Assembly: GCA_013204605.1 (NCBI GenBank)
Contig: JABMNI010000014.1
Location: 55,151 to 119,150, forward strand
DNA: 64,000 bases
Origin: Ignavibacteria bacterium
GTDB lineage: Bacteria > Bacteroidota > Ignavibacteria > Kapaibacteriales > Kapaibacteriaceae
Reading direction: 5' to 3'
Below the pieces are notes generated by a model that saw only the letters and a program-made list of their open reading frames with translations, searched no databases and was not told the DNA's origin. How positions within the stretch are numbered: the stretch's first letter is position 1; the number at the start of each line of letters is the position of its first letter. A program made the position numbers and the translations under genes. Below are positions 8,406-53,759 of this stretch, one piece after another.

Positions 8406-8407
8406 TA

Positions 8408-12650: not shown

Positions 12651-12695
12651 GATTTACGTCAATCCACGTTAACAACCAGTAAGTAGAAAGTTCGA

Positions 12696-14150: not shown

Positions 14151-14151
14151 C

Positions 14152-16349: not shown

Positions 16350-16371
16350 GTTGACGAACTCAGATTTGAAT

Positions 16372-28949: not shown

Positions 28950-28958
28950 TCACGCTTC

Positions 28959-31900
28959 ATGAGGTCTAAAATGACAAAAAATTATGCCGTTACAACATTG
29001 ATGCTTACAGCGGTACTGTTGACGGGAGTATTTGAAGTTTACGGACAACTTCGGGTTTCGGTAAATCTCACGTCGCGTCCGGACCCCTACATTTCCAATT
29101 GGTCTCAGCGCAAAGAGGTGGTAATTGTGAGTGTTACGAATTCTTCTTTAAAAGAGATCGATGCGAAATTCAACTGTACAGTGAAGAAGGATGGTGTTCT
29201 ACTTGCCAACACAAAACCCGAGAACATGCAGGTGCTTTCGATACAGCCTGGCTCTACTCAATACTACGGTGAAGATCTTGTTCCAATTGCTGCCATGCGA
29301 GTTATTGGCAATACCGAGCAAACATTAGTTAAGACCGGAATGCTTCCTGCGGGTGAATATGAGTTTTGTGTAAATCTTATACACCCAACTTCAGGCATTG
29401 AACTCACTCCGCCAGTGTGTAGGAACTTTACAATCCAAAGCTATCAAGCGCCAGTGCTCTTGTTGCCACTCGATGGTGACAGTTTGCGAAAGGGACAGCG
29501 CCCACTCTTTCGTTGGATGGCAGTTTCGCCAAAACCTTCGTTTGTGGTTAGATACCGTTTACAAGTATTTGAAGTAATGACCGGTCAGACTCCAATCACT
29601 GCATTTCGCGTTAACCAACCCATCATTGATGTTCCTGACATTCAAACTACACAGCTCTTGTGGCCGCCGGATTATGATCTTGTAAGTAATCAAAAAAGTC
29701 TGGTTTGGACGGTGCGGGCAATAGATGACAATGGTAATCCTTTGGGCGAGCCGAATGGTTATGCCACACCATTCGTTTTGAAATGCGCTCAAGATGTAAG
29801 CAAAGCAACTGGTGATGTAAGTACGGGTAACGCAACAAAAAAATCAGGCGCCGATGGCAATATGAATGCTAGGTCGGGTGAATCTGGTTCGTCCACCACT
29901 CGAAGCACATCTACCACGGGGTCCGATACAACAGATGCGAATTCGGCAAACAATGCAAAACAGTCCTCGGGTTCCAACACTCCTAGCTACCAAACGCCGC
30001 CAAGTTTGCCGTGCGGTCAATGTAGTTATGCCGTCACAATAACCGATACCGCTGCATCTGCCGGCAACGCCGTGGTAGGAGATTCGATTTCAATTGGACG
30101 CTTTTCAATGAAAATCACAACCTTGACAAACGCTCCGTTTGCTGCTTTGTCTGGGAAAGGGGAGATCAATATTCCTTGGTTACTCGCCCGTGTGCTGGTC
30201 ACTTTTGATAGTCTGAAAGTGAATGCAGCAAAGCAGGTTGTGATTGGAGAAGCGAGGAGCGAGGTAGATGCATCTGCGCCACAGTATCCTCAGCAATGGG
30301 CAATAAATCAGGCAGTAAGTTGGAACTGGACAAAAAAGACGGTAGCATGGGTAGATGACTTTGTAAAACAAAAGGGCAGTATTGTTAAATCTGTCAACAA
30401 CATGAACACGCCGCTAAAGGTACCTCTCGGATTTAACAACATTAGTGGCTACACCGTTTGCATATCGGAATTTCTATTCAAAAAAGATGATGCGCTTATG
30501 GCCATGGTAGCCACGATTCCATTACCTAAACTCGACGACACGCTAAGTCTTGGTTTGAACCAGTTGCCGATCTGTCCGCAGGGAGTTGGTAAGACCGCGC
30601 GTCTTGAACTACTCGCAGATCTTGATGTAAGGGGGCTTACCTCAGCGCAACCCACGTTTTCTATCACGGCGCTAGCACCAACCGCCAACCGTCCGGGGTG
30701 TTATATAATGTTCGGGTGCGACAACAACACCGACACACTATCGGTTGATTTTGATATTGCCTTCCCTCGCGCTTGGATTACACCTCGTCCCGATGCCGAC
30801 TCGACCAAACAAACCATTGCCACGCTGCGTGGAACAGCCGTCAACTGGAAGGAATGGTTGGTTGTAGGTAGCCTGCCGGCAAGCACGTTTGTAGGCACGA
30901 ACGGTATGGGACTGCAGGTAGACACACTTGCATTTGACTTCAGCGACAGACAAAACCCACCCGGAATAATATTCCCTGCTAATTATACTGGAATAACCGA
31001 CACAACATTCAATGGCTTCTATGCTAAGAAGGTTCGTATGTGGATGCCTGATGGGTGGCGCACGTTTGCTGATTCTGCTTCGGCTCCGGAGTTCAGCGCT
31101 AACTCTCTAATCATCAACAAGAATGGAATTACCGGTACGTTGCTCGGTGTAAATATTGTTCAGTTTCCGAATGCAAATCTCAATAGACTTAGTGCAAGTA
31201 TCGACACCGTAAAAGTTGTGATGCTAAACACCAATCTTACTTCGGCATATATGCGAGGTAGATTATTGTTGCCTATCACCGATTCGACTCCGCAGAACGC
31301 AATAGCGTATAAGGCGCTTTTCAATAGCACACAAAAGTCGTTCGACTTTTCGTTAACGCCTACTACTCCGATCGACATGAAGTTGTTTGCCGGTGCAAAG
31401 CTCACGTTGCTTCCGTCATCATCATTGACGATGACCATTTCGAAGGCTCGTAAAAAATTCGCTCTAGTCTTGAACGGGGAGATTGGGTTCAACGCCATTG
31501 AATTGCAGGTTGGGCAGAAAAAAGTAGCGGTAGATCTTTCGGTTGATTTCGAGAATATGTACGCATCGTACACCGACTCTGTTAAACACACCTTCGACTA
31601 TTCGATTGGCGACTGGAGTTTTGCTAGTGCACAGAAGAAGCTCGCGAAATTTCCGGTTACCATAGACAAGGTGAAGTACGCTAAGCTTACACCCGTTGGC
31701 TATGAATTAATGCGTGGTAAGGTGAGTTTAGATTTGATACTGGCACTAGATTCGAATCGGATTGGTGGAAAAGGATCGTTCGATGTTACCGTTGCTGTTG
31801 AGAAAAACAATCCCACGTCGTCATTCAAATTCCGGCCACGATTCATAGATTTCAATGTCGGAAAAGTTGACGTTCACGCCAAACTAGCAGCCGTTGAGTT

Positions 31901-33989
31901 GAACGGCGAACTAAACTTTTACAATGAAGATCCAACCTGGGGAAATGGTTTTGCCGCATCAATTCAGGCAAAGTTCAAAGCATTGCAATTGCAAATTGAT
32001 GTAGCGGGAAGATTTGGTACAAAGGTCGACAACACCAATACCAGATTCCGTTATTGGTATGCCGATGCAAAAGCAATACTTCCACCTCCAGGCATTGTGT
32101 TTTTACCTGGATATGCATTCTACGGTTTTGGTGTAACCGCTTGGCAGCGGATAAGTGTAGACATGACAGGGGCTAAACCTAACGCTGCTGCCGTGGCAGG
32201 AGCTTCCACAACAACCACGGCCCCAGGAAGCGGTGCTACCATGTCACCAAACAGACAAATCGGTTTCGGCTTCAAGGTTCTCGCCGTACTGGGCACTACA
32301 CCCGATCCCGCAAAGTTGAACGCCGATGTTGCACTAACGGGTCAGTTCTCAAACTCTGGTGGCATGATTAACATCGGCTTTATTGGTGATTTATGGTTGC
32401 AGGCAAAACTTTTGGAACGTGCATCGGCACCGGTAAAGGGCACGCTAAATATCAACTATGACTTTACAACGAAGATCTTCGACCTGAACGCAACGATGAC
32501 AATAAACAAGCCACCTGTCACCGGAAGTGGAAACTTGAAAGTTCACTTGGAAGGCAAAACTGGAATTTGGTATGTCAAACTTGGCGAACCAACAAACCGG
32601 AATACTATTGCCGTGAATTTTCTTGGAACTGGAATTACAGCCAACTCCTACTTTATGTTTGGCAAAAACATAACGCCCCCTACAGGATTTACACAGCGCA
32701 CATACAACGGCTTAGCGTCTGTTGGGTGCTACGGTATGACGCCATCGTCATCCGGAACAACAGGTGCGATTTCGGGCAGCGGATTTGCCGGCGGCTTAGA
32801 CGTCGGTTTCGACTCTGGCGAACGCATGCGAGACATAATTGCAAGGTTAAAAGCTAAGTGGAGATTTGCAGGGGGCTTTGAATTCAATGCATCGCTTTTA
32901 CGATATCCAAATGGCTCGCTGTGCGGTGGCGATGGCATGAATTGGTGGTATGTGCAAGCCAATGTTGCGGCGTACGCTATTGCGAGTGCCAGCGTGTATA
33001 TAACACCTAAAAAAATTAGCGACGGCTGCATTGTATGTTGCACTAAGAACCATCCTAATGGTTGTACCTACAACATTGCAACCATAACATTCGGTGCGTG
33101 GGCCGAGGCAGGATTCCCGAACAACTCATGGCTTCAAGGACAAGCAACAGGGTCGTTCAATGTACTTGGCGGAGCGTTCAGCGGAAGTTTTAGCGCAGAG
33201 TTTAACGTAGGCACACGATGCACGCCGGCACCTCCGGCCAGCGCGAACGTAGCGGCACAAGACGTTGGAGCCGAACAGGCAACCAAGCTGATAACATCGG
33301 TCACGCCTGCACACAACTCCATGAACGTAGCGCTAGCAGAACCCATCATGGCAATTTATTCATTTGAGCCCAACGTACCATTTGATTTAACCGAGTTGCA
33401 GGGTGGAGCATCCGGCAATACCGTGAACCGGACTTTTCAAGTAAAGTATGCTGTCACAGTAGAGCAGTTTAACGAAACAGTTTGGGCGCCAACTGTAGTT
33501 TCAAGCGCCAAGGATGCGCTTGGTGCATTTTTATTCCGAAGGAAGTCGAATATTATTCTACCCATAAACGACGTGACGTATAGTGCTAAGACTACCACTA
33601 TGACTCCTAAAAATACCAATGCACCATTTTCAACTTCCAATAGTCCTACTCCGATAACTCCGCCCAAACCAACCGCTGTTCTTAACGCGCCGAAAAATAC
33701 TTCAAACCCATTCGAAAACACCCCGCCCCCTTCAGAAAGTGACTCATACTCGTTCAGCAATGCCGGACAACAAGCATTCATGAATGCCACTCTAAATTGG
33801 GAGCTGGCAAAGAAGTATAGAGTTACCGTGGTGGGCACACTTTGGGAGCTTTCTTCAAACAATCAGTGGGTGATTGCTAAATCGAAAAGTTCGAATCAAA
33901 ATATTACGCAGACGGTAGTCAATGTTTTTAGTACGCCAATGCCGTTGATTGCTATTAATAAAAATGTGCAGAAGAACAGTGTTAAGTAA
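28959..33989 (+). CDS. Giant secreted protein (1676 aa); no family recognised
   Basis: Signal peptide MTKNYAVTTLMLTAVLLTGVFEVYGQ. Contains an S/T/N-rich linker (~29800-30010), a Cys cluster (SLCGGDG...DGCIVCCTKNHPNGCTY, ~32915-33070) and a Pro/Thr-rich linker (~33590-33750). No T9SS CTD, no LPXTG, no RHS/YD or cadherin-like motifs seen. Confidence 0.55.
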   Translation: MRSKMTKNYAVTTLMLTAVLLTGVFEVYGQLRVSVNLTSRPDPYISNWSQRKEVVIVSVTNSSLKEIDAKFNCTVKKDGVLLANTKPENMQVLSIQPGSTQYYGEDLVPIAAMRVIGNTEQTLVKTGMLPAGEYEFCVNLIHPTSGIELTPPVCRNFTIQSYQAPVLLLPLDGDSLRKGQRPLFRWMAVSPKPSFVVRYRLQVFEVMTGQTPITAFRVNQPIIDVPDIQTTQLLWPPDYDLVSNQKSLVWTVRAIDDNGNPLGEPNGYATPFVLKCAQDVSKATGDVSTGNATKKSGADGNMNARSGESGSSTTRSTSTTGSDTTDANSANNAKQSSGSNTPSYQTPPSLPCGQCSYAVTITDTAASAGNAVVGDSISIGRFSMKITTLTNAPFAALSGKGEINIPWLLARVLVTFDSLKVNAAKQVVIGEARSEVDASAPQYPQQWAINQAVSWNWTKKTVAWVDDFVKQKGSIVKSVNNMNTPLKVPLGFNNISGYTVCISEFLFKKDDALMAMVATIPLPKLDDTLSLGLNQLPICPQGVGKTARLELLADLDVRGLTSAQPTFSITALAPTANRPGCYIMFGCDNNTDTLSVDFDIAFPRAWITPRPDADSTKQTIATLRGTAVNWKEWLVVGSLPASTFVGTNGMGLQVDTLAFDFSDRQNPPGIIFPANYTGITDTTFNGFYAKKVRMWMPDGWRTFADSASAPEFSANSLIINKNGITGTLLGVNIVQFPNANLNRLSASIDTVKVVMLNTNLTSAYMRGRLLLPITDSTPQNAIAYKALFNSTQKSFDFSLTPTTPIDMKLFAGAKLTLLPSSSLTMTISKARKKFALVLNGEIGFNAIELQVGQKKVAVDLSVDFENMYASYTDSVKHTFDYSIGDWSFASAQKKLAKFPVTIDKVKYAKLTPVGYELMRGKVSLDLILALDSNRIGGKGSFDVTVAVEKNNPTSSFKFRPRFIDFNVGKVDVHAKLAAVELNGELNFYNEDPTWGNGFAASIQAKFKALQLQIDVAGRFGTKVDNTNTRFRYWYADAKAILPPPGIVFLPGYAFYGFGVTAWQRISVDMTGAKPNAAAVAGASTTTTAPGSGATMSPNRQIGFGFKVLAVLGTTPDPAKLNADVALTGQFSNSGGMINIGFIGDLWLQAKLLERASAPVKGTLNINYDFTTKIFDLNATMTINKPPVTGSGNLKVHLEGKTGIWYVKLGEPTNRNTIAVNFLGTGITANSYFMFGKNITPPTGFTQRTYNGLASVGCYGMTPSSSGTTGAISGSGFAGGLDVGFDSGERMRDIIARLKAKWRFAGGFEFNASLLRYPNGSLCGGDGMNWWYVQANVAAYAIASASVYITPKKISDGCIVCCTKNHPNGCTYNIATITFGAWAEAGFPNNSWLQGQATGSFNVLGGAFSGSFSAEFNVGTRCTPAPPASANVAAQDVGAEQATKLITSVTPAHNSMNVALAEPIMAIYSFEPNVPFDLTELQGGASGNTVNRTFQVKYAVTVEQFNETVWAPTVVSSAKDALGAFLFRRKSNIILPINDVTYSAKTTTMTPKNTNAPFSTSNSPTPITPPKPTAVLNAPKNTSNPFENTPPPSESDSYSFSNAGQQAFMNATLNWELAKKYRVTVVGTLWELSSNNQWVIAKSKSSNQNITQTVVNVFSTPMPLIAINKNVQKNSVK

Positions 33990-34014
33990 CTATCGCAAAT
34001 CAGGGACAACATCC

Positions 34015-36165
34015 ATGCGCAAGCTTGTAGTATTCACGGTGCTCGCAATGTTCGTATTCGTTGCGGCTGCAAACCAAATTTCGGCGCAATCGAACGACAA
34101 TCTCAATGCGGCGTTGAACGTGCAAATGAAGGGAATTGCAAAACGATACGCCGACTCCGTAGTGCTACGATGGGCACCCGGTAACGCCTTCTTATGGCGT
34201 TTGTCGCGCACGCAGGGCTATAACATTGAACGAGCGGAAGTGATAAATGGCAACGTTGGCCCATACGTTGCTCTTACTGTAGCGCCCGTTACGCAATGGA
34301 CAACGCAGCAATGGACAACATTCCTCCAGACATATCAATATGCCGATAGCACAGATGAACAGTTGATAGCAGTAGCAAGCATTTTATCGGAGCAAGCCGA
34401 TTCGCCAACAGACACTCCGGTGAAAGATCTTGGAGATCTTCAGGCACTTCGCGAGAAAAAAAGTCAATCTGAAATGACCTTTGCTTACGCACTCATTATT
34501 GCAGAACGCAATCGAATTGCTGCCAATAGTTTAGCCATGAGGTTTGTAGACAAGAGTGCTACATTAGGTAAGGAATATAGATATCGGATTTCTATGTTGG
34601 GATCAACCACACCATACAACGTGACTGCTGCCTTGGTTGACGTATCACCGCGTGCAAACACTGCCGAACAAAATGATGCCGGACTCAGTGCGTTAGCATT
34701 AGATACAAAGGTTGTGTTAACGTGGGCAAACACAACCGGACATTCAACATTTGATGTGTATCGTTCAAACAACGGTTCACAGTTTACAAAACTCAATATA
34801 ACGCCGCTCCTCACCATACGTCATGGAACTGCCGATGCAGAATCGAACGGCTACATCGATTCGAATCTTGTGAACTACACAACGTACACGTATCGAGTTA
34901 CGGGAAATAATTCGTTTGCCGAAGTTGAAGAAATCGGAACTATTAATGCAATGCCGCATGATGTTACGCCACCACCAACGCCAAGCGGCGTGCGCACTGA
35001 ACACGTTGGCGTAAAAAGTGTGGCGATCACCTGGCATATGCCAGATGCACCGATGCCTGATTTACTCGGCTTCTACATTCAGCGTGGCAGATCAGAAGAC
35101 GGTACGTTCCAACTTGTAACTACTACGCCGCTGGCAAAAAATATTCGTTCATATCTCGATACCACCGCCGCCTTAGGCGACACACTCTACTATCAGGTTG
35201 TGGCCGTAGATACTGCAAAGAACGGCAGCTTGTCGTTTGCGGTGTACGTTGCATTTGCGGACAGTATAGCCCCTTCACCAGCAGTGCTGATACGTGGCGT
35301 TATGGATACTGCCGGTGTAGTGCGCATAACAGTGCAGCATCCAACTGATGCAGATGTAATGGGATATCGACTGCTAATCGCAAACGATTCCACGCATGAG
35401 TTTACCGTTAAGCGAGAACTCTTCGACGAAGAAACACAATTCAATAGGGAAGACACCATCTTGCTCGACACAGCCGAGTTGCGCACGCTTACAAAATTTG
35501 TTTACTACCAAGTAATTGCCCTCGACTATCACTTTAATGAGTCGGTGGTAAGCAATATGATTGCCGTTCCACGGCCGGATATCATTCCACCCGTTTCGCC
35601 TGTTGTTACAGACTACGTTGTAACAGACTCGAGCATCGTTCTCTTTTACAATCCAAGCACAAGTAGGGATGTAAGCCACCACGTTATCCAAAGAAGACCA
35701 TTCAATGCAACAAGTGTTCCTCCAACCACATGGGACTCTCTTGCACGCGGTGGAATAACCGACAGCATCATCGTCGACCAAACAGGAACACTGTCTGCCA
35801 CATATCAGTACGCTGTAATTGCCTTCGACAGTGCGGGAAATGTATCGCCCCTTTCAAACATCGTAACCCTAGTGCGCTACGACAATGGTATACGACCGCC
35901 CGTGACTACCGTGCGAGCCGCATACGACTCCACTACAAAGTCCGTCCGCCTCCAATGGGAGTATATCGATTTAGGTGAAGAGCACAGCTTCATGATTTAC
36001 AAACGCAATGGCGCGGCGCTCGAATCTTACGCCCTAGTAAAGGACCAACTCGCCCGGGAATACATTGATTTGAAGGGGGCTAAACGCAACGCTACATTCG
36101 CAATAAAGGTAATCTGCAGCCGAGGCGCAGAATCGAAAATGAGTGAGAGTGCAACGGCACGTTAA
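34015..36165 (+). CDS. Secreted protein with fibronectin type III-like repeats
   Basis: The ORF track starts at 33949, overlapping the giant gene. I prefer ATG 34015 (MRKLVVFTVLAMFVFVAAANQISAQ, signal peptide). FN3-like segments: TPPPTPSGVRTEHVGVKSVAITWHMP...YYQVVAVDTAKNGS and IIPPVSPVVTDYVVTDSSIVLFYNP...YQYAVIAFDSAGNVS. Confidence 0.55.
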   Translation: MRKLVVFTVLAMFVFVAAANQISAQSNDNLNAALNVQMKGIAKRYADSVVLRWAPGNAFLWRLSRTQGYNIERAEVINGNVGPYVALTVAPVTQWTTQQWTTFLQTYQYADSTDEQLIAVASILSEQADSPTDTPVKDLGDLQALREKKSQSEMTFAYALIIAERNRIAANSLAMRFVDKSATLGKEYRYRISMLGSTTPYNVTAALVDVSPRANTAEQNDAGLSALALDTKVVLTWANTTGHSTFDVYRSNNGSQFTKLNITPLLTIRHGTADAESNGYIDSNLVNYTTYTYRVTGNNSFAEVEEIGTINAMPHDVTPPPTPSGVRTEHVGVKSVAITWHMPDAPMPDLLGFYIQRGRSEDGTFQLVTTTPLAKNIRSYLDTTAALGDTLYYQVVAVDTAKNGSLSFAVYVAFADSIAPSPAVLIRGVMDTAGVVRITVQHPTDADVMGYRLLIANDSTHEFTVKRELFDEETQFNREDTILLDTAELRTLTKFVYYQVIALDYHFNESVVSNMIAVPRPDIIPPVSPVVTDYVVTDSSIVLFYNPSTSRDVSHHVIQRRPFNATSVPPTTWDSLARGGITDSIIVDQTGTLSATYQYAVIAFDSAGNVSPLSNIVTLVRYDNGIRPPVTTVRAAYDSTTKSVRLQWEYIDLGEEHSFMIYKRNGAALESYALVKDQLAREYIDLKGAKRNATFAIKVICSRGAESKMSESATAR

Positions 36166-38381: not shown

Positions 38382-40400
38382 TTATTTCGAGCGCGGAGTT
38401 TCAATTATTACTTGAACAGTTCGCGAAAGCTGACGTCCAATCGGGGCATCATTATTAAATATTTCTGTCGATTCTCCAACGCCTAGGGCAGTGTATTTAG
38501 CATCCTTCGCCTTTGCCATCAACGTATTCTTAACCGTTTCAGCGCGATCCATCGATAACTTTTTATTGTACTCATCCGATCCAATTCTGTCTGTGTATCC
38601 AATGATGCTGACCTTTGAATTAGACTTGATGGATGGTAAAACCATTTGCTCAAGGATGCGCGAGTTTTCTGGCGTTAAATCAGATTTATCGAAGTCGAAG
38701 AGTACCAACGAATATTTATCGATGGTTTTATCGGGAAGGTTTTCGGTTTTCTTGCGGACACTACTTATGTACTCAACAGGCAACGATCCGAAAGAAGTAG
38801 CTGAATCACCATCGCCAGATACAGCCGTGAATTCATAGTCGATTGGAACTTGCGATGCCGATAATTCATTCGGGCGTACAACCCAGCTAATAGCATCGGC
38901 TTTTCCATTTGCTTTTACTTCGCGAAGTGTGCGTCCGGCCTGAGAAATATTCAATGACCAACTTTCAATTGAATCTGCATTGTCGTACACAGGGTGAAAC
39001 TGCATAACATCTGGCGTTGCAATGCGTTGGTTATCTGCTGCAATAACTACCGGTGCAAGAACATCTGGAACGTTGCTTGAAAGCTCTATCCTTCTATTCT
39101 CAGCAATACCATCGGGTGTTGTGGAAGAGGAAGGCTTGGCGGGCGTAGCCGTTGTGCGTGTTACAATTCTATCCTCCGAAATTCCAAACCCATTAACCAA
39201 ATATTGTTTTGCCCACATAGCACGCTGTTCGCCCAAAGCTTTGTTTTTGCTTTCTTGTTTGCCATCGGTAGTACCGGTAATGGTCAACGTGGCATTTGGA
39301 TACTTGCGCATTCGGCTGCCAACAATATTCAACATGTTTTTGTTAACCACGATTGCATCTTGCGGTAAACTTTCAGCCAAGAACTCACCCTGCTCTTTTT
39401 GTGCAGCCGGTTCGGCCTGCAAAGATGCATCAGGAGATGCGCTACCCTCTGTACAAAAAACGTACGGAAGCAACGGAAACATCTCGTTGTACTGCAAATC
39501 CTCTACCGCCACGTTGCGAACCGCATACTGATTTCCATCCGTATTTCGTGCAGTAATTCTATCAATTCGAGTCCCAAATTTTGGTCGGTCTGCGGTAGGG
39601 GGCGGTGCAGCTGTAACAATGCCAAAACTTATATTAATTCCTACGCGCAATTGTCCAACCTTCCAAGGAGTGTTGTTAACATCGGATGAAACGTTTGAAA
39701 GCGGCAGACGGTACGAGATTTCCGGCTGTAGCCACCATTTGTCGCCCAGCTTAAATGTGTAGCCAGCGCCAAGCATAAGTGCCGTGCGAATGTTTGAGTT
39801 AATAATCTCTGTCGAGCCAGCGGTATTTTCTGTTGCTACACCTTGTTCGGCAACGCGAAGTTCAGTGGTCTGCGCAACAGACGATCCAAGTCCGAAACCA
39901 AATTCGAGTCCACCAAGCAAATACACCGGAACCGATCCAAACAAATCGTACACTTCAATTCCTGGCGAAACCTCAAGTAAGGTTGATGAGGCATTCCAAG
40001 CGTGGTATAAAACTGAGTCGACTCCCACGGGCTGACGCTGATTACTTGATGACGAAATAGTATTTATCCCCAACCTGCCCGTAAAATGAAACATCCGATT
40101 TATCGGAATGCCTACAAGTAGACCACCAACAAAAACTGTGTGTGTGTTTCCTTCAGCGTATCTTAACGTGTTGTTAGCATATCTAGTGAGAAGCGGTGCA
40201 GCCGGCGTAGTTTTTTGCCAGACCAAAACAGACGGACTTGAAAAGTTGAAACCTAGTGCCCCGAAAATGCCAATTCTGGCCGGGGGTACCAGGGTTTCTT
40301 CAACTCCTGTCATAGTAGTATCAGCCGAAAAGCCCCTTACCGAGAAAAATAGAAGTGACACCGTTACGATTGCCAGAAATTTACGAGTCATAGAATTCAT
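38382..40400 (-). CDS. OmpA-family outer-membrane protein with an N-terminal beta-barrel and two OmpA-like C-terminal domains
   Basis: 672 aa with a signal peptide. Two peptidoglycan-binding OmpA-like modules (...ITGTTDGKQESKNKALGEQRAMWAKQYL..ENRRIELSS and ...IIGYTDRIGSDEYNKKLSMDRAETVKN...). Paralogous to the 43592..45592 protein. Confidence 0.7.
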   Translation of the reverse strand: MNSMTRKFLAIVTVSLLFFSVRGFSADTTMTGVEETLVPPARIGIFGALGFNFSSPSVLVWQKTTPAAPLLTRYANNTLRYAEGNTHTVFVGGLLVGIPINRMFHFTGRLGINTISSSSNQRQPVGVDSVLYHAWNASSTLLEVSPGIEVYDLFGSVPVYLLGGLEFGFGLGSSVAQTTELRVAEQGVATENTAGSTEIINSNIRTALMLGAGYTFKLGDKWWLQPEISYRLPLSNVSSDVNNTPWKVGQLRVGINISFGIVTAAPPPTADRPKFGTRIDRITARNTDGNQYAVRNVAVEDLQYNEMFPLLPYVFCTEGSASPDASLQAEPAAQKEQGEFLAESLPQDAIVVNKNMLNIVGSRMRKYPNATLTITGTTDGKQESKNKALGEQRAMWAKQYLVNGFGISEDRIVTRTTATPAKPSSSTTPDGIAENRRIELSSNVPDVLAPVVIAADNQRIATPDVMQFHPVYDNADSIESWSLNISQAGRTLREVKANGKADAISWVVRPNELSASQVPIDYEFTAVSGDGDSATSFGSLPVEYISSVRKKTENLPDKTIDKYSLVLFDFDKSDLTPENSRILEQMVLPSIKSNSKVSIIGYTDRIGSDEYNKKLSMDRAETVKNTLMAKAKDAKYTALGVGESTEIFNNDAPIGRQLSRTVQVIIETPRSK

Positions 40401-45595: not shown

Positions 45596-47155
45596 ATGCA
45601 ACGAAGAGACCTTTTTAAACGACTATCGCTCTTGAATGAGCGAACCACGTCGCCCCCTTCACTCCAATTGGTTGAAGCCGGAGTTGAAGAACATACCGAT
45701 CCACTCACCCTGTCCGACGTGCTACACCTGCTGCGAAGAATGGGTTTTGGTGCCACCATGCCGCAGGCGAAATTGCTAGTTGGAAAGCGAGCGGCCGAGG
45801 TGGTAGATGCGTTGTTGGGAGCTGATGAGGAACCGGATTTGCCGTCGCCAGGTGCGTGGACAGATACAGCCACAGAAAATCCGTTGGGGGCTGATTTGCA
45901 AACGCGCGGTCAGATTTATAACACGTGGGACCAGAACTGGAAGAAGCTGGGTAATTGGTGGTTACTGGAAATGGCTAACGATACCAAGGCAGTTGAAAAA
46001 TTGACTCTATTTTGGAGTGGGCATTGGACGTCGGAGTATTCGTTCGATGAGACATTTAGTGTCCCGCAAACGTTGTACCGTCAGTACAAAACCATTCGCA
46101 AGAATCGCTTGACAGGATTTCAGAAGATGGCGTTAGAGATGACGGTTGACAATGCGATGGTGAATTATTTAGGCGGTACCTATAACGAAGTGGGCAAGCC
46201 GAACGAGAACTATGCACGCGAGCTTATGGAGTTGTTTACCTTGGGAATCGGTTTTTATACCGAAGGTGATGTTAAAGAAGCTGCCAGGGTACTTACAGGT
46301 TGGAAGTCATCAAAGTATTCCGATGAGCCGGCACCAAATGGGATTTACGGTACGTGGTTCAACGCGGCGCGGCACGATATCGGGGCGAAACAGTTTATGG
46401 GTCAGACGATTTCCGCACGTACCAACGATAACAACACCGAATTCCAAGTAAAAAATGAAGAAATTGGCAGGCTCATCGATATTATTTTCACGGTAAGAGC
46501 CGACAATGTTTCAAGATTTATTAGCGAAAAAGTATACCGATATTTTGTATACAGCGCAAAAGGAGAGGCAGATCCGGTGATTATTGAAGGCCTGGCAAAA
46601 CCTTTCCGTGATGGAGGTTTTGAAATGAGAATTCTTTTCAAAAAATTATTTACAAGCAAGCATTTTTTCGATCCTGCATTGCGCGGTGCTCAAATAAAAA
46701 CTCCGGTTGAGTTTGTTGTTGGACTACTCCGACAATTAGGTGTCACTAATGCCGATCCGCAAAGTTGGACGGGTAAGATGGATCAATTTATGTTGGATCC
46801 ACCAAACGTTGCGGGGTGGCCTGGTTATCGTACGTGGATTAGCACTAATACCTATCCGCAGCGACGCCAGTTTGCACTTGAAGTAATTAAGGCAATGTCT
46901 GACGCGCGAGCAAACTCTTTCATCAAAGAATTCGATGATTACTCAGATGTAAAGAAATTTATCGCTAACGTTTGCAATTACTTGTTTCCGGTGGAAGTAA
47001 CTCAGGAGCGATTAGATTTCTACAAAAACTCGTTGCTTGGTGGAGCTCCTGATTATGACTGGCCCGTAATTTTAAACACACCTTCTAGTTCTGCAGCCAA
47101 GTTTAGAAATATGCTAAACACAATGGCTAAAGCACCGGATTTCCAACTCTGTTAA
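45596..47155 (+). CDS. DUF1800 family protein
   Basis: 519 aa. LHLLRRMGFGAT motif near the N-terminus, as in DUF1800. Immediately followed by a DUF1501 gene, which is the known conserved pairing. Confidence 0.6.
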   Translation: MQRRDLFKRLSLLNERTTSPPSLQLVEAGVEEHTDPLTLSDVLHLLRRMGFGATMPQAKLLVGKRAAEVVDALLGADEEPDLPSPGAWTDTATENPLGADLQTRGQIYNTWDQNWKKLGNWWLLEMANDTKAVEKLTLFWSGHWTSEYSFDETFSVPQTLYRQYKTIRKNRLTGFQKMALEMTVDNAMVNYLGGTYNEVGKPNENYARELMELFTLGIGFYTEGDVKEAARVLTGWKSSKYSDEPAPNGIYGTWFNAARHDIGAKQFMGQTISARTNDNNTEFQVKNEEIGRLIDIIFTVRADNVSRFISEKVYRYFVYSAKGEADPVIIEGLAKPFRDGGFEMRILFKKLFTSKHFFDPALRGAQIKTPVEFVVGLLRQLGVTNADPQSWTGKMDQFMLDPPNVAGWPGYRTWISTNTYPQRRQFALEVIKAMSDARANSFIKEFDDYSDVKKFIANVCNYLFPVEVTQERLDFYKNSLLGGAPDYDWPVILNTPSSSAAKFRNMLNTMAKAPDFQLC

Positions 47156-47195
47156 TTGTACTTGAACCATTGAATAACGAATTATAGGTAGCGCG

Positions 47196-48755
47196 ATGAA
47201 ACGCAGAAACTTTATAAAATCCACGGCCGCGGCCGCAGTTGGTTCGCAGGTACTTGGCGGAGTGCCAGTTAAGGCTTTCTCTCCGTTCGAACTTTCTGAG
47301 CAGATTCAGGGCGAAGACGACAAGATACTAATCGTAATCCAGCTATTTGGTGGGAATGATGGCCTGAATATGATTGTACCTGTAGATGATCCTGAATACT
47401 ACAAGGCTAGGCCAACCATTGCCGTACCTAAGGATAAGGCCGTGAAGGTGCTGGGTAATGTGTATATGCATCCGGCACTCGATCCAGCGAATATTTATAA
47501 TTTAAAACGAATGTTCGAAGATGGCCGGCTGGCCGTGATACAAGGTATTGGTTATGAAAATCCCAACCTTTCTCACTTTAGAAGCACTGACATTTGGTTG
47601 AGTGGTTTTAACTCCATCGATCCAGACAAGCGTTTGATTGATGGGTGGCTTGGTAGATATTGGGCTGATCAAATTCAGGGCTTCCCGGAGACCTTGCCAG
47701 ATCATCCAACGGCGGTGCAACTTGGCGGCACGCTGTCAATGTTACTACAGAGCCCGCAGGGAGACATAGGCATCGCTCTAACCGATCCGCAAAAATTCTT
47801 TGAGCTGGGACAGGGGCTTTCACCTGATCTTGATCGAATGTCCGAGGATACTCGCTACGGCAAGGAATTCAATTTTGTCCGCTTGGTTGCCGAGCAATCA
47901 GACAAATATTCCACGGTGGTTAAATCTTCATATGATAATGGCAAGAACTCTGTTACGTACCCGAAAAATGGATTTATTCAGCAAATGCAATTGATTGCAA
48001 AGCTTATTTCTGGCGGACTAAAAACCAAGGTGTTCTTGGTTCGCATGGGAGGGTTCGACACTCATGTGCAGCAACAGAATGATGATCTTACTGGACTCCA
48101 CCCATACCTAATGAACACATTGAGTTCAGGTATCGGATTGTTTATGCAGGATGCCCTTGCACAGGGTTTCGCCGACCGAGTTGTTGGAATGACGGTTTCG
48201 GAATTTGGCCGAAGGCCAGCCGAGAATGGTAGCCGAGGTACCGATCACGGTGCGGCCTCCATGCAATTTGTTTGGGGTAATAAGGTGCGAAGCGGCGTGT
48301 ACGGAAATAATCCCGACTTCACGAATCTCGACAATGGAGACTTCAGGTGGCAGTACGACTACCGCAGGATTTATGCCGATGTAATGGAAACGTGGTTTGG
48401 CGGCACTCCCGATGACACCGAACGAATCTTAGAAGAACGCGTTTTGCCATTGGGAGTTTTGCAGCGCACTACCTCCGTTCAGGATGCGTACGATGGAAAA
48501 ACACGTATCGAAATCAAGGCATTTCCAAATCCATTCACCTCCACGGCCACGTTAGAGTGGAACCAGGAAGTACCGGCCTCGGTCAAGATTGAACTCTATT
48601 CAACCACGGGAAAGCTGGTCGAAACAGTGTACATTGGTAGCGTCTCACCAGGTAGGGTAACCATCCCCGTTACAGCATCGGCATCGGGCTCCTACATATG
48701 CAACGTGATTGTGAACGGTGTAAGTAATACCGTCCCAATTTCTGTTCTACACTAG
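47196..48755 (+). CDS. DUF1501 family protein (alkaline-phosphatase-like superfamily) with an N-terminal Tat signal and a C-terminal T9SS sorting domain
   Basis: Twin-arginine motif MKRRNFIKSTAAAAVGS. DUF1501 hallmark LFGGNDGLNMIVP. The last ~85 aa (IEIKAFPNPFTSTATLEWNQEVPASVKIELYSTTGKLVETVYIG...GSYICNVIVNGVSNTVPISVLH) match the T9SS type-A C-terminal domain pattern. Confidence 0.65.
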   Translation: MKRRNFIKSTAAAAVGSQVLGGVPVKAFSPFELSEQIQGEDDKILIVIQLFGGNDGLNMIVPVDDPEYYKARPTIAVPKDKAVKVLGNVYMHPALDPANIYNLKRMFEDGRLAVIQGIGYENPNLSHFRSTDIWLSGFNSIDPDKRLIDGWLGRYWADQIQGFPETLPDHPTAVQLGGTLSMLLQSPQGDIGIALTDPQKFFELGQGLSPDLDRMSEDTRYGKEFNFVRLVAEQSDKYSTVVKSSYDNGKNSVTYPKNGFIQQMQLIAKLISGGLKTKVFLVRMGGFDTHVQQQNDDLTGLHPYLMNTLSSGIGLFMQDALAQGFADRVVGMTVSEFGRRPAENGSRGTDHGAASMQFVWGNKVRSGVYGNNPDFTNLDNGDFRWQYDYRRIYADVMETWFGGTPDDTERILEERVLPLGVLQRTTSVQDAYDGKTRIEIKAFPNPFTSTATLEWNQEVPASVKIELYSTTGKLVETVYIGSVSPGRVTIPVTASASGSYICNVIVNGVSNTVPISVLH

Positions 48756-48785
48756 GTGTTTCGTACACTTGACGAATACGAGGGC

Positions 48786-48817
48786 ATCCCGTTGGGTGCC
48801 TTTTTTTATAGCACCTA
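48786..48817 (+). terminator. Rho-independent terminator after the DUF1501 gene
   Basis: GGCATCCCG-ttg-GGTGCC hairpin (one G-U pair) followed by TTTTTTT. Confidence 0.55.
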
Positions 48818-48833
48818 ACTTACCCCTACACTT

Positions 48834-50357
48834 TTGGCTAGCAGAAGAGAATTCATAAAAGCAATTATGGTTGGCACTGGGGCAGTGTACGCCGTTGGTA
48901 TAAGCGGTTGTAAGCGTCCCGCCGAGGTGACTTTGGTTAGCGCAGCAAAAAGGAATTTCGGAACTCCACTGTACAAGGTTGCACACGCGTTAATTAGAGA
49001 TGGTGGTGCGCTGCCTCGAGTTTCAAAAAAAGTAAACTGTGATTACGTTGTTGTTGGAACGGGAATCTCCGGACTCACAGCTGCACTCTCACTGCAAGCT
49101 GAAGGCAAACATGTTGTAGTAGTAGAAAGCGAAAATCGAGCCGGCGGTACCGCGGTCAGCGCAAACTTGGCAGGCAGCAAGGTCCCTCTTGGAAGCGTAT
49201 ACTTCGTTGATAAAACTCCGGAAATTGAAATGCTCCTTAGTGTGGGCAAGATAAAACCTACCGTGTGTCCGGATGATGCCTACGACTTTGGAACCGGCGA
49301 GCTTATCCGTGATTTGTGGTCAGACGAAACGTTAAACAACGCCATTGCGGACAGTTCCGACCGCGATGGCATGTACCGCTTTCGAGATTATGTTAAGGGG
49401 CTAGGTGATTCTCTGCCTTTGTATCCGCTACCCGAAACTTTGAATAGTGAACTGGCAAAATTTGATATTCAGGCCGAGTCGTGGGTAAAGAAATTTGATT
49501 CGCGAACCTTACTTACCATTCTGAACGCCTATTCAAGATCTTCGATGGGTGGATTGTTGCAGCGCACGAATGTGTATTGTCTGCTGAATTTTTACTCTTC
49601 AGAGTTCGGCGAAGGCACAACCGCTAACCGATACACTTTCCCAGGTGGCACCTCCGCTTTGGTTGATGCAGTTACGCCAAGTTTGCACGACATGAGGTAT
49701 GGTCAACTCGCAGTTCGCGTAGCAAATTCCGCTAGCGGTGCGTATGTTGACTGTGTTGGTGCCGATGGTACCTTAACGAGATACGAAGCAAAAAAAGTAA
49801 TTTTTGCAGGCGGAAAATTCCAAGTATCACGACTTATTGAAAATTTACCCACGGCCCAGAAGTTGGCATGCAGCAAGTTGGAATACGCACCTTATATGAC
49901 GATTCACATCGTTAGCGATCATCCACTCGTGCAGAATAATGTGTACGACACATGGAATCTAACCAGCGAGTTTGAAACAGATGTGGTGAATCCAAGAAGT
50001 GTATTTGGTTCAACACTCGACAAACATGTAGCCTCGTTGTTTATTCCCATGGACCAATTTATGCGCGTGCAACTACAAAGTGAAGAGCTCTTTGCTCGTC
50101 GTGCCGGTGAAATTGTAGACAGGTTTATTAATACTCGAACCCCAGATCAACAAGCCTCGGTCCGAGAAGTATATTGCTGGGGATGGGGTCATGGAATGAT
50201 CATTCCCACCCCTGGTTCGCATTCAGGCATTGCTCAAGATGCCTCACGTCAGTTCGAAAACATAGTGTTTGCCAACACCGATTGCGATGCATCCCCATCC
50301 ATCGAGAGCGCTGCCCAACGTGGCGGGCTAGCAGCCATACAGGCACTCAGTACGTAG
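48834..50357 (+). CDS. FAD-dependent oxidoreductase (amine-oxidase/PPO-like Rossmann) with a Tat signal, possibly a Tat lipoprotein
   Basis: TTG start gives MASRREFIKAIMVGTGAVYAVGISGC. This is a near-consensus Tat motif (SRRxFIK) followed by a lipobox-like ISGC. The FAD-binding motif is DYVVVGTGISGLTAALSL...VVESENRAGG. Confidence 0.65.
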   Translation: MASRREFIKAIMVGTGAVYAVGISGCKRPAEVTLVSAAKRNFGTPLYKVAHALIRDGGALPRVSKKVNCDYVVVGTGISGLTAALSLQAEGKHVVVVESENRAGGTAVSANLAGSKVPLGSVYFVDKTPEIEMLLSVGKIKPTVCPDDAYDFGTGELIRDLWSDETLNNAIADSSDRDGMYRFRDYVKGLGDSLPLYPLPETLNSELAKFDIQAESWVKKFDSRTLLTILNAYSRSSMGGLLQRTNVYCLLNFYSSEFGEGTTANRYTFPGGTSALVDAVTPSLHDMRYGQLAVRVANSASGAYVDCVGADGTLTRYEAKKVIFAGGKFQVSRLIENLPTAQKLACSKLEYAPYMTIHIVSDHPLVQNNVYDTWNLTSEFETDVVNPRSVFGSTLDKHVASLFIPMDQFMRVQLQSEELFARRAGEIVDRFINTRTPDQQASVREVYCWGWGHGMIIPTPGSHSGIAQDASRQFENIVFANTDCDASPSIESAAQRGGLAAIQALST

Positions 50358-50590: not shown

Positions 50591-51316
50591 ATGCAAAAAC
50601 CATTGAAGGTGATAATGTCAATTGTTCTGACAACTACCTTGGTCTTAGTTGGGTGTACAAGCAGCACTACGCCAGCGGGATCAGGCAAAATGTCAGTTAC
50701 CTCGTCTTTAAGTGCTACCAGCGTGAATTCGGTTAATTCATCAGTAAAAGGAAACAACTCCGTCCAGGCAGTTGATTCAATTTCAGTTCAGAGGCTTCGA
50801 ATTCTTTTTTCTCGGATAAAGGCACATACAAATGATACCTCCGAAGGAAACGGAAAAAGTATGAAGGTAGGTCCCGCGATGTTAACGTTCACTGATGTTA
50901 CCACCTTAGTCTTTGCTACCGACCTTCCGGTTGGAACGTATCAGCGACTTAAGCTTGAGATGCACAAGTTTTCTTCAAGCGAAGCGAACACGTATAAAGG
51001 CGATCCGGTGTTTGGAGACTTCGCGTACCCGGAAAAACTGACTGTCATAATTGATGGTACGCAATACAAGGATGGTGTTAGCACGCCGTTCACGCTAACG
51101 TTCGATGATACTGAGAACTTCTGGTTGATCTTTACAGATCCACTAGTAGTTACAGAAGGTGGAACTGCAGAAGCAATCTTGGAATTGGATATTGCCGAAC
51201 TGTTTAGAGTTTCAGGTGTTGTAATTGACGTAAATGATCTAGACAACCGTAAGGATCTTCGCAAGAGACTTAAGCAAGCGTTTAAGCTTCACAAGAAAAA
51301 AATCGTTGTCGGATAA
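50591..51316 (+). CDS. Hypothetical lipoprotein
   Basis: ORF 50558..51316. I prefer ATG 50591 (MQKPLKVIMSIVLTTTLVLVGC, lipobox LVGC), which is preceded by AAGGA. Ser/Thr-rich region after the Cys. Confidence 0.55.
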   Translation: MQKPLKVIMSIVLTTTLVLVGCTSSTTPAGSGKMSVTSSLSATSVNSVNSSVKGNNSVQAVDSISVQRLRILFSRIKAHTNDTSEGNGKSMKVGPAMLTFTDVTTLVFATDLPVGTYQRLKLEMHKFSSSEANTYKGDPVFGDFAYPEKLTVIIDGTQYKDGVSTPFTLTFDDTENFWLIFTDPLVVTEGGTAEAILELDIAELFRVSGVVIDVNDLDNRKDLRKRLKQAFKLHKKKIVVG

Positions 51317-51337
51317 GTAAAGTTCGTGCAAAAAATA

Positions 51338-51371
51338 AAAGAGACCGCTCAGTGAGCGGTCTCTTTTTTTT
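51338..51371. terminator. Bidirectional rho-independent terminator
   Basis: GAGACCGCT-cagt-GAGCGGTCTC hairpin. It is followed by T8 on the plus strand, and by TTTTATTTTTT on the minus strand downstream of tRNA-Leu. Confidence 0.75.
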
Positions 51372-51518: not shown

Positions 51519-53759
51519 TTACCTGCGCACCATCAACTTTGCAATTGTACTCTGACCCGATGTAGCACTTGTTGCATGAATCAAGTACACACCCGGTGGA
51601 ACTGTTCTACCTAACGTGTCGGTGCCGTCCCACGTTGTTTGCTTTCCCTTGGTCTGAAAAGCGGTTACCAAGAAACCGCCCGTGGTCATAATCCGAATAT
51701 CCGAATCAGCCGCTAGTCCATTAATTATCACTTCATTATCTAGTTGTGGGCTGAATGGTTGAGGGTGAATTTCAATATTGTAATCAGCTACCGGTTTGAT
51801 TGAAGATGACCTAGCCACAGTGCATCCGTAACTCGTTCCAAAGTAAGCCAGCCCTGTTTTATCATCAACGGCGATACACCGAATGTTATCATCAAGTAAT
51901 GGTGCATTTGACTTTGACAAACTCAACAAAACTTGCGTTCCATCTTCGTTTAAAACAAAAACGCCAGTCGAAGTGGCAACCCATTTATAGTTCAACGCAT
52001 CAACATATATGTCATTTACCACGGCCGATGAAAGCAACGAAATGCGACGCACGTATGGAACGGTGGTGTTACTTAATTGGGAGGGGGCTGAAATCACGGC
52101 TACACCTTTTGGAGTACCAATCCATAACGATCCCGATTTGTCTATTCGTAAAACGTTGATCACGTTATCTGGTAATTGCGTATTTGATGTGCGGATGTAA
52201 TTACAAACGTCATCTGAGGAAATGTCAACGTTGCGCTCATTAAATCCCACTATGCCAATTCCAGCAACACTGCCAATCCATTTATTGCCCGCCCCATCAA
52301 CAGCGATTGATCTGAACAATGTGCTGCCGGGGTCGACGCAATTTGGAAATGATTTAGAGGTTTCGTCTTGGTTAAGCTTAACCGCAAGTACCGACGCGGA
52401 TTGTTCGTTCACAATCCAGGTATTGCCTTGACGGTCTTGCGCTACGTCGGCAACCAGGAGATAATTCGGATCGGCTGCAATACCTTGCAGCACCGAATTC
52501 TGCGAGTTGAATAACTTAAACTGAATTTCGCCATCTACTTTTTTGGCTTGCACAGCCCCCTTCCCCCAGGTGCCAATCCAAATAGAACCGTCGGCCACGG
52601 CTGAAACACGGTAACATGCTCTGGTTTGAATTTGTGGTGTGTTGGAAGTGTTGAAATTTTGCCAATTGGTTCCATCAAAGTAGGAAACGCCTTCGCCAGC
52701 GCGAGGTGGTTCAACATCAGTTGCTACCCAAAGGCCACCATCGTTGTCGAGGGCGATGCGCGCAAACTGATTGGATACCGGCGAGTTGATTTTTACCGAA
52801 ATCAGACTGTCTAGATTAGAAATCTCTAGCCCTTTTCCAACTATGAATCCAATGAAGTGTACCTTTCCATCTTTAACTATGGTTGAATGGCCGAGGAGCT
52901 CGTTCGACCAGCTGATTACTATTGGCTGGGCAACCGAAACAATGCCACCAGATGAGGAAACGTATAACTGATTTTCGGAAATACTAATTCCGTTAACGGG
53001 CTGTGAAGTAGTTACTAGTGAAGAAAATATTGAACCCGTCCAGACTAAGGCTTGCGAAGCACATCCAACGTACAGTTGCGACTGTGCAGACGTAATGAAA
53101 CTAACCTTCGAAGTGGGAAGTCCGCTGACGGTGTCGTATACACTCCAAACCGTGGGAAGTCGGAGGGTGTTAACATTCAAAGGAGCCACGGCCATGCCGG
53201 AATCTGTTGCCACCCAAATACTGTCACGAAGAATTACTATACCATTGACGGCTGTTTTTTCTTGCAGGCGTCCAATTCGATCTATCGTCTCAACAAATAC
53301 TTGTTGTTTGGTATTGTAAAGTAGTACCCCTAAGTCTGAAGCGATAAATAATGTGTCGCCTTTTTTCGCGAACCCTCGAATTGTTCGGCGCTGATATTGT
53401 GAAGCCCGGGAAATGTCGGTGATGTTTGTCCATTTGCCGTTTGCGGTGGCTATATCTAAACTCCCGTTTTCGCCCCCTACATATATCAATGAATCTGCTG
53501 GGTCGAAAAATATTGCGGTGGCATCCAGCGACAACATCGCATCGATGTTGCGATATTCTGTAACTGGCGTATTCTGATCCGTGTATACAAACACGCCTCC
53601 CGAAGTGGCGGCCCAAATTCTACCTGTATGATCCAACGCAACTGCACGCACGGACCTGAGGCTGGAAAGTGTTAAATACGATGAGACCTGCACAGATTGA
53701 GCTGTAGCGGTTCCGGCAATCACACACAGCGCAACGCAGCACAAAAGGTGTTTCAGCAT
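51519..53759 (-). CDS. Secreted beta-propeller protein (two-component-regulator-propeller-like repeats) with a T9SS C-terminal sorting domain
   Basis: 746 aa with a signal peptide. Many repeats of the W(I/V)(A/G)T type (RIWAATSGG, LWVATDV, IWIGTWG, LWIGTPKG, KWVATSTG). The C-terminus ...IEIHPQPFSPQLDNEVIINGL...TTWDGTDTLGRTVPPGVYLIHATSA...KLMVRR matches the T9SS CTD. Confidence 0.7.
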   Translation of the reverse strand: MLKHLLCCVALCVIAGTATAQSVQVSSYLTLSSLRSVRAVALDHTGRIWAATSGGVFVYTDQNTPVTEYRNIDAMLSLDATAIFFDPADSLIYVGGENGSLDIATANGKWTNITDISRASQYQRRTIRGFAKKGDTLFIASDLGVLLYNTKQQVFVETIDRIGRLQEKTAVNGIVILRDSIWVATDSGMAVAPLNVNTLRLPTVWSVYDTVSGLPTSKVSFITSAQSQLYVGCASQALVWTGSIFSSLVTTSQPVNGISISENQLYVSSSGGIVSVAQPIVISWSNELLGHSTIVKDGKVHFIGFIVGKGLEISNLDSLISVKINSPVSNQFARIALDNDGGLWVATDVEPPRAGEGVSYFDGTNWQNFNTSNTPQIQTRACYRVSAVADGSIWIGTWGKGAVQAKKVDGEIQFKLFNSQNSVLQGIAADPNYLLVADVAQDRQGNTWIVNEQSASVLAVKLNQDETSKSFPNCVDPGSTLFRSIAVDGAGNKWIGSVAGIGIVGFNERNVDISSDDVCNYIRTSNTQLPDNVINVLRIDKSGSLWIGTPKGVAVISAPSQLSNTTVPYVRRISLLSSAVVNDIYVDALNYKWVATSTGVFVLNEDGTQVLLSLSKSNAPLLDDNIRCIAVDDKTGLAYFGTSYGCTVARSSSIKPVADYNIEIHPQPFSPQLDNEVIINGLAADSDIRIMTTGGFLVTAFQTKGKQTTWDGTDTLGRTVPPGVYLIHATSATSGQSTIAKLMVRR

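Follow-up and report, generated by a model that had tools for sequence, protein, structure and literature searches.

What does the DUF1800-DUF1501 gene pair do, where do its products go, and does a flavin oxidoreductase encoded behind it belong to the same system? These questions are raised by a 64,000-nt stretch of an Ignavibacteria bacterium genome (contig JABMNI010000014.1; hereafter the window, to whose positions all coordinates refer). A DUF1800 gene, a DUF1501 gene and a gene for a flavin amine-oxidase-family protein (hereafter the flavoenzyme) follow each other there on the same strand, and all three open reading frames (ORFs) were found where an earlier sequence-only reading had placed them. 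That reading regarded the three as one exported module, periplasmic or at the surface. We see about an even chance that the locus is instead an envelope operon with an OmpA-DUF1800-DUF1501 core, in which DUF1501 would be exported through twin-arginine translocation (Tat) and then through the secretion system of type IX (T9SS), and from which the flavoenzyme is separate.

The DUF1501 protein carries sorting information at both ends. Its N-terminus has the features of a Tat substrate, namely the sequence MKRRNFIK, 17 uncharged residues and then VKA. Both arginines are invariant in 43 homologues; across a more diverse set of 57 relatives, R3 never varies and R4 is kept in at least 90%. At the other end, a T9SS C-terminal sorting domain (CTD) was detected at amino acids (aa) 443-508 by Por_Secre_tail (27.3 bits, cut-off 27) and TIGR04183 (25.1 bits, cut-off 23). 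Por_Secre_tail was also detected in 35 of the 43 close and 46 of the 57 diverse relatives, with a best E value of 7e-11, and in the AlphaFold model of DUF1501 the C-terminal end (441-517) is a seven-strand beta-sandwich with a model confidence (pLDDT) >90. PorZ, encoded 2.8 kb downstream of DUF1501, shows that T9SS machinery is encoded in the genome. Because R3 and R4 are conserved and Por_Secre_tail is found in most relatives, the combination of a Tat signal with a T9SS tag is, to judge from these alignments, a family trait and not an accident. The twin-arginine signal noted in the sequence-only reading is real, but the sorting domain had been missed; with it, DUF1501 is predicted to end up at the cell surface instead of in the periplasm.

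Sequence-profile searches of the PDB with DUF1501 and with DUF1800 returned nothing useful. The sole sequence match of the DUF1501 profile was weak (E 0.17) and involved a 75-residue chain, 8glk_D ('Endonuclease I'), which aligns exactly to the C-terminal segment; we take this chain to be the CTD of a T9SS cargo. Three metagenomic DUF1501 relatives of about 472-477 aa (loci L106, L107 and L128) are without the T9SS domain. EF-hand Pfam matches were obtained for three members of the scanned DUF1501 set, probably these same three, the matches having been reported for the set and not member by member.

As for what DUF1501 may do, the domain (PF07394) scored 69.9 bits against a gathering cut-off of 27, with a best stretch that covers only model positions 229-340 of 390, and PF07394 matched all 57 diverse relatives. 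The protein has the alpha/beta core fold of the alkaline-phosphatase superfamily, so that both the core and the twin-arginine signal proposed from the sequence were recovered, and its structural neighbours include choline- and ethanolamine-phosphate/sulfate enzymes. Invariant positions comprise D55 of GGND, which follows strand 1; S126-H127-F128-R129, at the N-terminal end of a helix; D288 and H290 of FDTH; and D350 and H351 of GTDHG. D55, S126, D288/H290 and D350/H351 stand at the secondary-structure positions expected for the superfamily, as judged by the order of the elements and not by residue-level superposition; these are the sites at which the superfamily has its first metal-binding Asp, its nucleophile and its Asp-His metal ligands. 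By position, Ser126 is the likely nucleophile, and Asp55, Asp288/His290 and Asp350/His351 are likely metal ligands. The sequence-only reading had proposed to look for a metal-binding active site in a predicted structure, and the fold and the invariant Asp/His/Ser set point to a candidate site at the level of element order.

A type I (formylglycine) sulfatase identity was considered and rejected, as the C/S-x-P-x-R motif is absent. The nucleophile region reads N-L-S-H-F-R-S, and C/S-x-P-x-R occurs in only 1 of the 43 and 2 of the 57 relatives. We infer that, within the alkaline-phosphatase superfamily, DUF1501 acts on phospho- or sulfo-esters as a metal-dependent hydrolase or transferase. Compared with known members of this superfamily, that is, the nucleotide pyrophosphatases/phosphodiesterases (7mw8, ENPP6), the phosphatases PafA and PhoK, the type I sulfatases and the phosphoethanolamine transferases, its identity is only 6-13%, and it differs from them by Tat export, an obligate helical partner and the T9SS tag.

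That partner is DUF1800. When a metagenome search was performed with the DUF1501 profile, 80 loci were sampled, and DUF1800 lay directly upstream of DUF1501 in 74 of them; five were uninformative (contig end) and one (L066) was an orphan. The description of the two families as a widely conserved but uncharacterised pair was thus borne out. The L066 gene (7001-8578) has a Tat signal and a C-terminal extension, with no DUF1800 within 7 kb on either side, and is flanked by DUF2461, HepT-like and pirin genes; a frameshifted DUF1800 was considered there and rejected, the gene being a true orphan. In the window the two genes are 40 nt apart. An identical DUF1501 protein in the same gene order was found on a JGI metagenome contig and a Logan contig, and database labels for this protein and its relatives are Ignavibacteria or Candidatus Kapabacteria metagenome-assembled genomes (MAGs).

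DUF1800 (PF08811, E 2e-87, 294.5 bits against 26.1; aa 44-518 on model positions 1-419) is all-helical, and its fold is without a solved relative. It starts with MQRR, and the RR (aa 3-4) of this M-x-R-R is invariant in 38 homologues. The stretch that follows is hydrophilic, without a hydrophobic core (h-region), and this is therefore not a canonical Tat signal. The longest uncharged run of the N-terminus has a median of 9. For the best 12-residue hydropathy, the median is 0.52 in DUF1800, compared with 1.39 in DUF1501 and 1.71 in the flavoenzyme. Signals were surveyed in 64 DUF1800 genes with complete 5' ends from the sampled branch, with heuristic start codons that make the numbers approximate: 26 have RR without an h-region, 37 are without any N-terminal extension and one resembles a signal peptide. 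With the same heuristic starts, signal peptides are absent from all 50 DUF1800 proteins whose DUF1501 partner bears a CTD. Ordinary signal peptides are present on the DUF1800 proteins of Novosphingobium, Phyllobacterium, Ralstonia and Acidisarcina, and those of Persicobacter, Rhodobacter and Miltoncostaea have none. The signal peptides in Proteobacteria and Acidobacteria indicate that the family works outside the cytoplasm. Since DUF1800 is exported in some lineages, signal-less in others and always beside a Tat-signal enzyme, co-export with DUF1501 would be the simplest explanation. A candidate contact element, to judge from its conservation, is the C-terminal tail APDFQLC (47132-47152), which fits the pattern P-[DE]-[FY]-Q-L-x. 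This tail is kept from Kapabacteria to Persicobacter, Ralstonia and an actinobacterium, and its last residue is Cys in most Kapabacteria-type members.

A third gene belongs with these two. The OmpA-family protein encoded upstream combines a Sec-type signal with a poly-Pro linker and two OmpA-like stretches, and its gene stops 3 nt before the DUF1800 ATG. This gap ranges from -4 to +3 nt in 14 of 18 measurable related genomes and is 15-24 nt in the other four. The OmpA gene precedes the pair in all orthologous loci, and also in L046 at 48% identity. The conserved unit is the triad of OmpA-like, DUF1800 and DUF1501 genes. A second OmpA-family protein of the same architecture (672 aa, 38382-40400, minus strand), with 27% identity to the first and a weak OMP_b-brl N-terminal domain, is encoded elsewhere in the window, and OmpA-type proteins of similar kind (~690 aa) are found near DUF1800/DUF1501 pairs in L047 and L048.

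Whether the flavoenzyme is part of this unit was addressed from both sides. A genome search with the flavoenzyme profile gave 41 loci, of which 21 (flavoenzyme identity 38-62%) are collinear over ~15 kb in the order amino-acid permease, LysE, OmpA-like, DUF1800, DUF1501, flavoenzyme, sometimes lipoprotein, then PorZ and RibH; roughly one in two orthologous loci has the lipoprotein behind the flavoenzyme. The 16 informative loci at an identity of 36% or less have no DUF pair, and the distant flavoenzyme homologues follow a MerR gene, a WD40 propeller gene and a gene for a small CarboxypepD_reg/OmpA protein. From the DUF1501 side, seven metagenome loci with a DUF1501 identity of at least 66% are informative, and the flavoenzyme lies behind the pair in 6 of them. 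It is missing in L059, a close relative in which PorZ directly follows DUF1501, and it is absent at all 71 metagenome pairs with a DUF1501 identity of 53% or less. Among other Kapabacteria/Ignavibacteria pairs (L046 to L048), Laminin_G_3/Ig-like surface proteins take its place. The place of the flavoenzyme behind the pair is limited to one clade of loci, and it is therefore a clade-specific neighbour of the pair in the orthologous Kapabacteria/Ignavibacteria clade, not a component of it. The synteny that the sequence-only reading had proposed to check exists within that clade (21 genome loci and 6 of 7 metagenome loci) and ends at its border, and the three-gene module was not supported as a general one.

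In two of the distant loci (L044 and L045, about 5400-9560) the run consists of a MerR regulator, a WD40 beta-propeller, a small hypothetical protein (L045), the CarboxypepD_reg/OmpA protein and the flavoenzyme. The MerR-WD40-OmpA run may be the older context of the flavoenzyme family. An ancestral OmpA-flavoenzyme linkage, suggested by the OmpA gene that the distant flavoenzymes also follow, was rejected, as no tblastn similarity was found between the 234-aa CarboxypepD_reg/OmpA protein and the 666-aa protein of the window. Five MAGs with the collinear block (L003, L004, L006, L007 and L009) are titled 'uncultured Hyphomicrobiales' or 'Bradyrhizobiaceae'; their PorZ and their collinearity with Kapabacteria suggest a mislabelled taxonomy.

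The flavoenzyme itself matches Amino_oxidase (PF01593; 54.9 bits against 19.8, aa 78-501) and NAD_binding_8, and G75, G77 and G80 of its dinucleotide-binding motif are conserved. A PDB profile search matched PPOX, MAO, LAAO and SpdH mainly over the FAD-binding N-terminus. The identities PPOX, HpnE, CrtI/CrtD and PigB were all rejected, as every NCBIfam equivalog scored far below its cut-off (PigB 67.6 against 850, PPOX 31.7 against 97.85, HpnE 36 against 283). Read from TTG 48834, the N-terminus runs from MASRREFIK to ISGC and comprises SRREFIK, 17 uncharged residues and a lipobox. No homologue with a full N-terminus lacks the RR, and Cys26 does not vary (31 of 31), which agrees with the Tat signal and possible lipidation proposed earlier. 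Gene callers begin the protein at ATG 48867 (496 aa) and so lose the conserved RR motif, and several database homologues of 494-499 aa are truncated at the N-terminus likewise. At the RR position, 18 of 21 related genomes have a GTG and three an ATG, which supports the longer start at the TTG of the window.

Like the flavin amine-oxidase/protoporphyrinogen-oxidase/phytoene-desaturase superfamily (PF01593), the flavoenzyme has a GxGxxG FAD-binding N-terminus and a C-terminal FAD motif. It differs by its Tat lipoprotein signal, by the lack of any equivalog near cut-off and by the small size of its family: at E <= 1e-3, no more than 42 proteins were scored in a word-indexed search, and the named sources of homologues are Kapabacteria, Ignavibacteria and Bacteroidota MAGs. 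We conclude that the flavoenzyme is a lineage-specific periplasmic Tat lipoprotein, independent of the pair.

A terminator noted earlier between DUF1501 and the flavoenzyme (at 48786-48817) had been taken as a hint against their association. The hairpin and T-run are real, the hairpin lying at 48780-48803, and the folding energy of the 78-nt spacer is -22.1 kcal/mol (z = -3.6). Among 21 relatives, a comparable hairpin with a T-run was found only in L005; the structure is lineage-specific and may be an attenuator. The hint is not general, as 15 of the 21 related genomes have a gap of 35 nt or less (down to 3 nt) and no T-run. Co-transcription of DUF1501 and flavoenzyme within the clade is therefore likely. 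A scan for sigma-70 promoters was uninformative (11 sites, 13 expected).

Taken together, these features suggest the following route. DUF1501 would fold, and probably acquire its metals, in the cytoplasm, where DUF1800, an obligate partner without a usable signal peptide in this branch, would most likely bind it. DUF1501 would then cross the inner membrane via Tat, carrying DUF1800 across on its own signal (hitchhiking), and the signal would be removed after VKA. The T9SS would recognise the C-terminal sorting domain and bring DUF1501 to the cell surface or the medium, and DUF1800 would act as a substrate-binding or maturation subunit. The flavoenzyme would be exported separately by Tat and stay in the periplasm as a lipoprotein; placed behind the pair in this lineage and probably co-transcribed there, it would lie outside the general DUF1800/DUF1501 system. 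More tentatively, and with the balance against it, the same route of a folded, metal-loaded enzyme exported by Tat with a DUF1800 hitchhiker and then displayed by the T9SS may apply to a large DUF1501 subfamily in T9SS-bearing bacteria.

Several points weigh against this reading. All 102 experimentally known T9SS cargoes have Sec signals, and the T9GPred pipeline rejects proteins with Tat signals (PMC10515386); reviews likewise describe T9SS cargo as Sec-dependent (PMC9251779). The window DUF1501, whose signal is twin-arginine, departs from the known cargoes in this respect, and its CTD scores barely exceed their cut-offs. Our literature searches found no Tat-dependent T9SS cargo, and those by family name and accession number found no functional characterisation of any DUF1800/DUF1501 member. 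The contact between DUF1800 and DUF1501 that co-export presupposes is deduced from gene linkage. As to the flavoenzyme, the hairpin and T-run separate its gene from DUF1501 in the window, and the very short gaps in relatives leave room for a functional coupling. On the other side stands the type II secretion system (T2SS), which takes Sec or Tat substrates (PMC9127263) and follows Tat in Pseudomonas aeruginosa (PMC4899797). On both routes the enzyme would be folded, cross the inner membrane by Tat and be passed to a machine of the outer membrane that takes cargo in the folded state; the difference is that the outer-membrane step for DUF1501 would be the T9SS, reported only with Sec-dependent cargo in the literature searched. 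As feeding of the T2SS by Tat is established, transit of DUF1501 from Tat to the T9SS appears plausible by analogy.

Other explanations of the locus were weighed against the same evidence. The C-terminal beta-sandwich of DUF1501 could be a mere immunoglobulin-like (Ig-like) accessory, with DUF1501 and DUF1800 periplasmic as in Proteobacteria and no T9SS step. The marginal hidden Markov model scores of the window CTD, the Sec dependence of known cargoes (PMC10515386), the Proteobacterial and Persicobacter DUF1501 proteins without the domain and the FlgD_ig matches of six relatives would agree with this. We consider it unlikely, since the domain stands at the extreme C-terminus, Por_Secre_tail is found in 46 of 57 relatives and CHU_C in two, the weak 8glk_D match covers exactly this segment and a T9SS component (PorZ) is encoded next door. 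The main rival to co-export is that DUF1800 stays in the cytoplasm as a maturation or proofreading factor for DUF1501, like the Tat chaperones TorD and DmsD. This would account for the 63 of 64 DUF1800 proteins in the branch without a usable signal peptide and for the tight coupling of the two genes, and the many invariant polar residues of DUF1800 suggest a binding or catalytic role. The cleavable signal peptides of the Novosphingobium, Phyllobacterium, Ralstonia and Acidisarcina proteins nevertheless speak against a cytoplasmic factor, and the invariant N-terminal RR would be hard to explain in a purely cytoplasmic protein. Known Tat chaperones are, moreover, far smaller than DUF1800 (~57 kDa), and a cytoplasmic role seems improbable to us.

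A similarly low probability is given to a single exported pathway of DUF1800, DUF1501 and the flavoenzyme, in which, for example, the esterase frees an amine-bearing head group that the flavoenzyme oxidises. The two enzymes are both Tat substrates, their genes lie side by side in one orientation at 21 genome and 6 metagenome loci, where flavoenzyme identity falls as low as 38%, and the 3-35 nt gaps in 15 of 21 genomes are without a T-run; the choline- and ethanolamine-phosphate/sulfate enzymes among the structural neighbours of DUF1501 would also fit. The same loci, however, are collinear over ~15 kb that include PorZ and RibH, so that the adjacency may reflect only shared ancestry. The flavoenzyme is absent from L059, from L046 to L048 and from all 71 more distant pairs, its distant homologues stand in a different operon, and the window has the terminator-like hairpin. 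The predicted destinations also differ, the cell surface via the T9SS for DUF1501 and a periplasmic lipid anchor for the flavoenzyme. Finally, it has been suggested that the DUF1501/PSCyt/PSD1 clusters of Planctomycetes and Verrucomicrobia form an electron-transfer module (PMC3542564). An extension of this idea to DUF1800/DUF1501 would draw on a PSD2/DUF1585-like segment in DUF1800 homologues, on PSD1 matches in 2 of 38 of them, which make for a weak relation since these Pfam matches are themselves weak, and on the adjacent flavoenzyme of the window. It is very improbable, as neither a cytochrome c motif nor any other redox-cofactor domain is present in DUF1800, DUF1501 has a hydrolase/transferase fold with a putative Ser/Asp/His metal site, and the flavoenzyme is not conserved with the pair.

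The reading with an OmpA-DUF1800-DUF1501 core and Tat-to-T9SS export can be compared with related systems. In Dickeya, Pectobacterium and Agrobacterium vitis, DUF1800/DUF1501 genes were found beside chitin synthase genes acquired by horizontal transfer, with no function assigned (PMC5122149), and DUF1501 occurs with PSCyt1, PSCyt2 and PSD1 partners in Planctomycetes and Verrucomicrobia, again with no function assigned (PMC3542564). The proteobacterial pairs share the two families, the gene order, the tight spacing and the Tat signal on DUF1501. They differ in that their DUF1501 has ~390-400 aa and no C-terminal sorting domain, their DUF1800 often has its own signal peptide and their neighbours include neither the OmpA-like gene nor the flavoenzyme. 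The planctomycete and verrucomicrobial modules resemble the window in combining a Tat-signal DUF1501 with a large uncharacterised partner, in the PSD2-like segment, found here in DUF1800, and in the Laminin_G_3 lectin-like proteins nearby; they differ from it in that DUF1800 is without cytochrome c motifs and that a T9SS tag is not described for them. The pair is an ordinary member of a widespread, known DUF1800/DUF1501 system, and what is new is the Tat signal and T9SS sorting domain on one enzyme.

The features of the locus are collected in Table 1. The lipoprotein noted earlier after the flavoenzyme was confirmed, its lipobox being directly visible in the sequence.

Table 1. Features of the DUF1800/DUF1501 locus and its flanks (window positions; aa where so marked)
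Feature	Position	Strand	Basis or remark
OmpA-family outer-membrane protein, 666 aa	43592-45592	+	Pfam OmpA, E 1e-16
DUF1800 protein, 519 aa	45596-47155	+	Pfam PF08811
DUF1501 protein, 519 aa, three parts	47196-48755	+	Pfam PF07394
DUF1501 Tat signal peptide, aa 1-27	47196-47276	+	predicted cleavage after VKA
DUF1501 alkaline-phosphatase-superfamily core, putatively catalytic	aa ~41-440
DUF1501 T9SS type A C-terminal sorting domain, aa ~441-519	48516-48752	+
Terminator-like hairpin and T-run, between DUF1501 and flavoenzyme genes	48780-48811	+
Flavin amine-oxidase-family oxidoreductase, 507 aa from TTG 48834	48834-50357	+	Amino_oxidase, NAD_binding_8
Flavoenzyme Tat and lipoprotein signal, aa 1-25, with lipid-modified Cys26	Cys26 at 48909-48911	+	predicted from alignment
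Small lipoprotein	50591-51316	+	lipobox LVGC; weak DUF4382 match
Strong bidirectional terminator, 14-bp stem	51337-51367		closes + strand gene run and convergent PorZ gene
PorZ (T9SS component)	51519-53759		equivalog, 322.8 bits against cut-off 260

No Tat machinery genes were found within the window. Elsewhere on its plus strand, a polysaccharide biosynthesis/export cluster (7377-18330) contains sugar-nucleotide genes (NAD-dependent epimerase/dehydratase, UDP-glucose/GDP-mannose dehydrogenase and UDP-GlcNAc 2-epimerase) together with genes for a Wza-like Poly_export/SLBB protein, a flippase, a Bac_transf priming transferase and GT2 glycosyltransferases. Three successive large ORFs of 606, 1676 and 738 aa (27129-36165, plus strand) have no Pfam match at E <= 1e-3 and make up 9 kb of wholly unannotated coding sequence.

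For the DUF1800/DUF1501 family, the locus narrows the problem. By its fold and conserved residues, DUF1501 would belong to the alkaline-phosphatase superfamily and act as an esterase or transferase other than a formylglycine sulfatase; the flavoenzyme, a neighbour specific to this lineage, need not be taken into account when the function of the pair is considered; and the lack of an export signal on DUF1800 in this branch leads to concrete, testable predictions. The conserved combination of a twin-arginine signal with a T9SS domain predicts that the T9SS accepts Tat-exported cargo, which current prediction rules exclude. If this is true, the range of T9SS cargo would extend beyond Sec substrates, and a whole class of it would be thrown out by current predictors.

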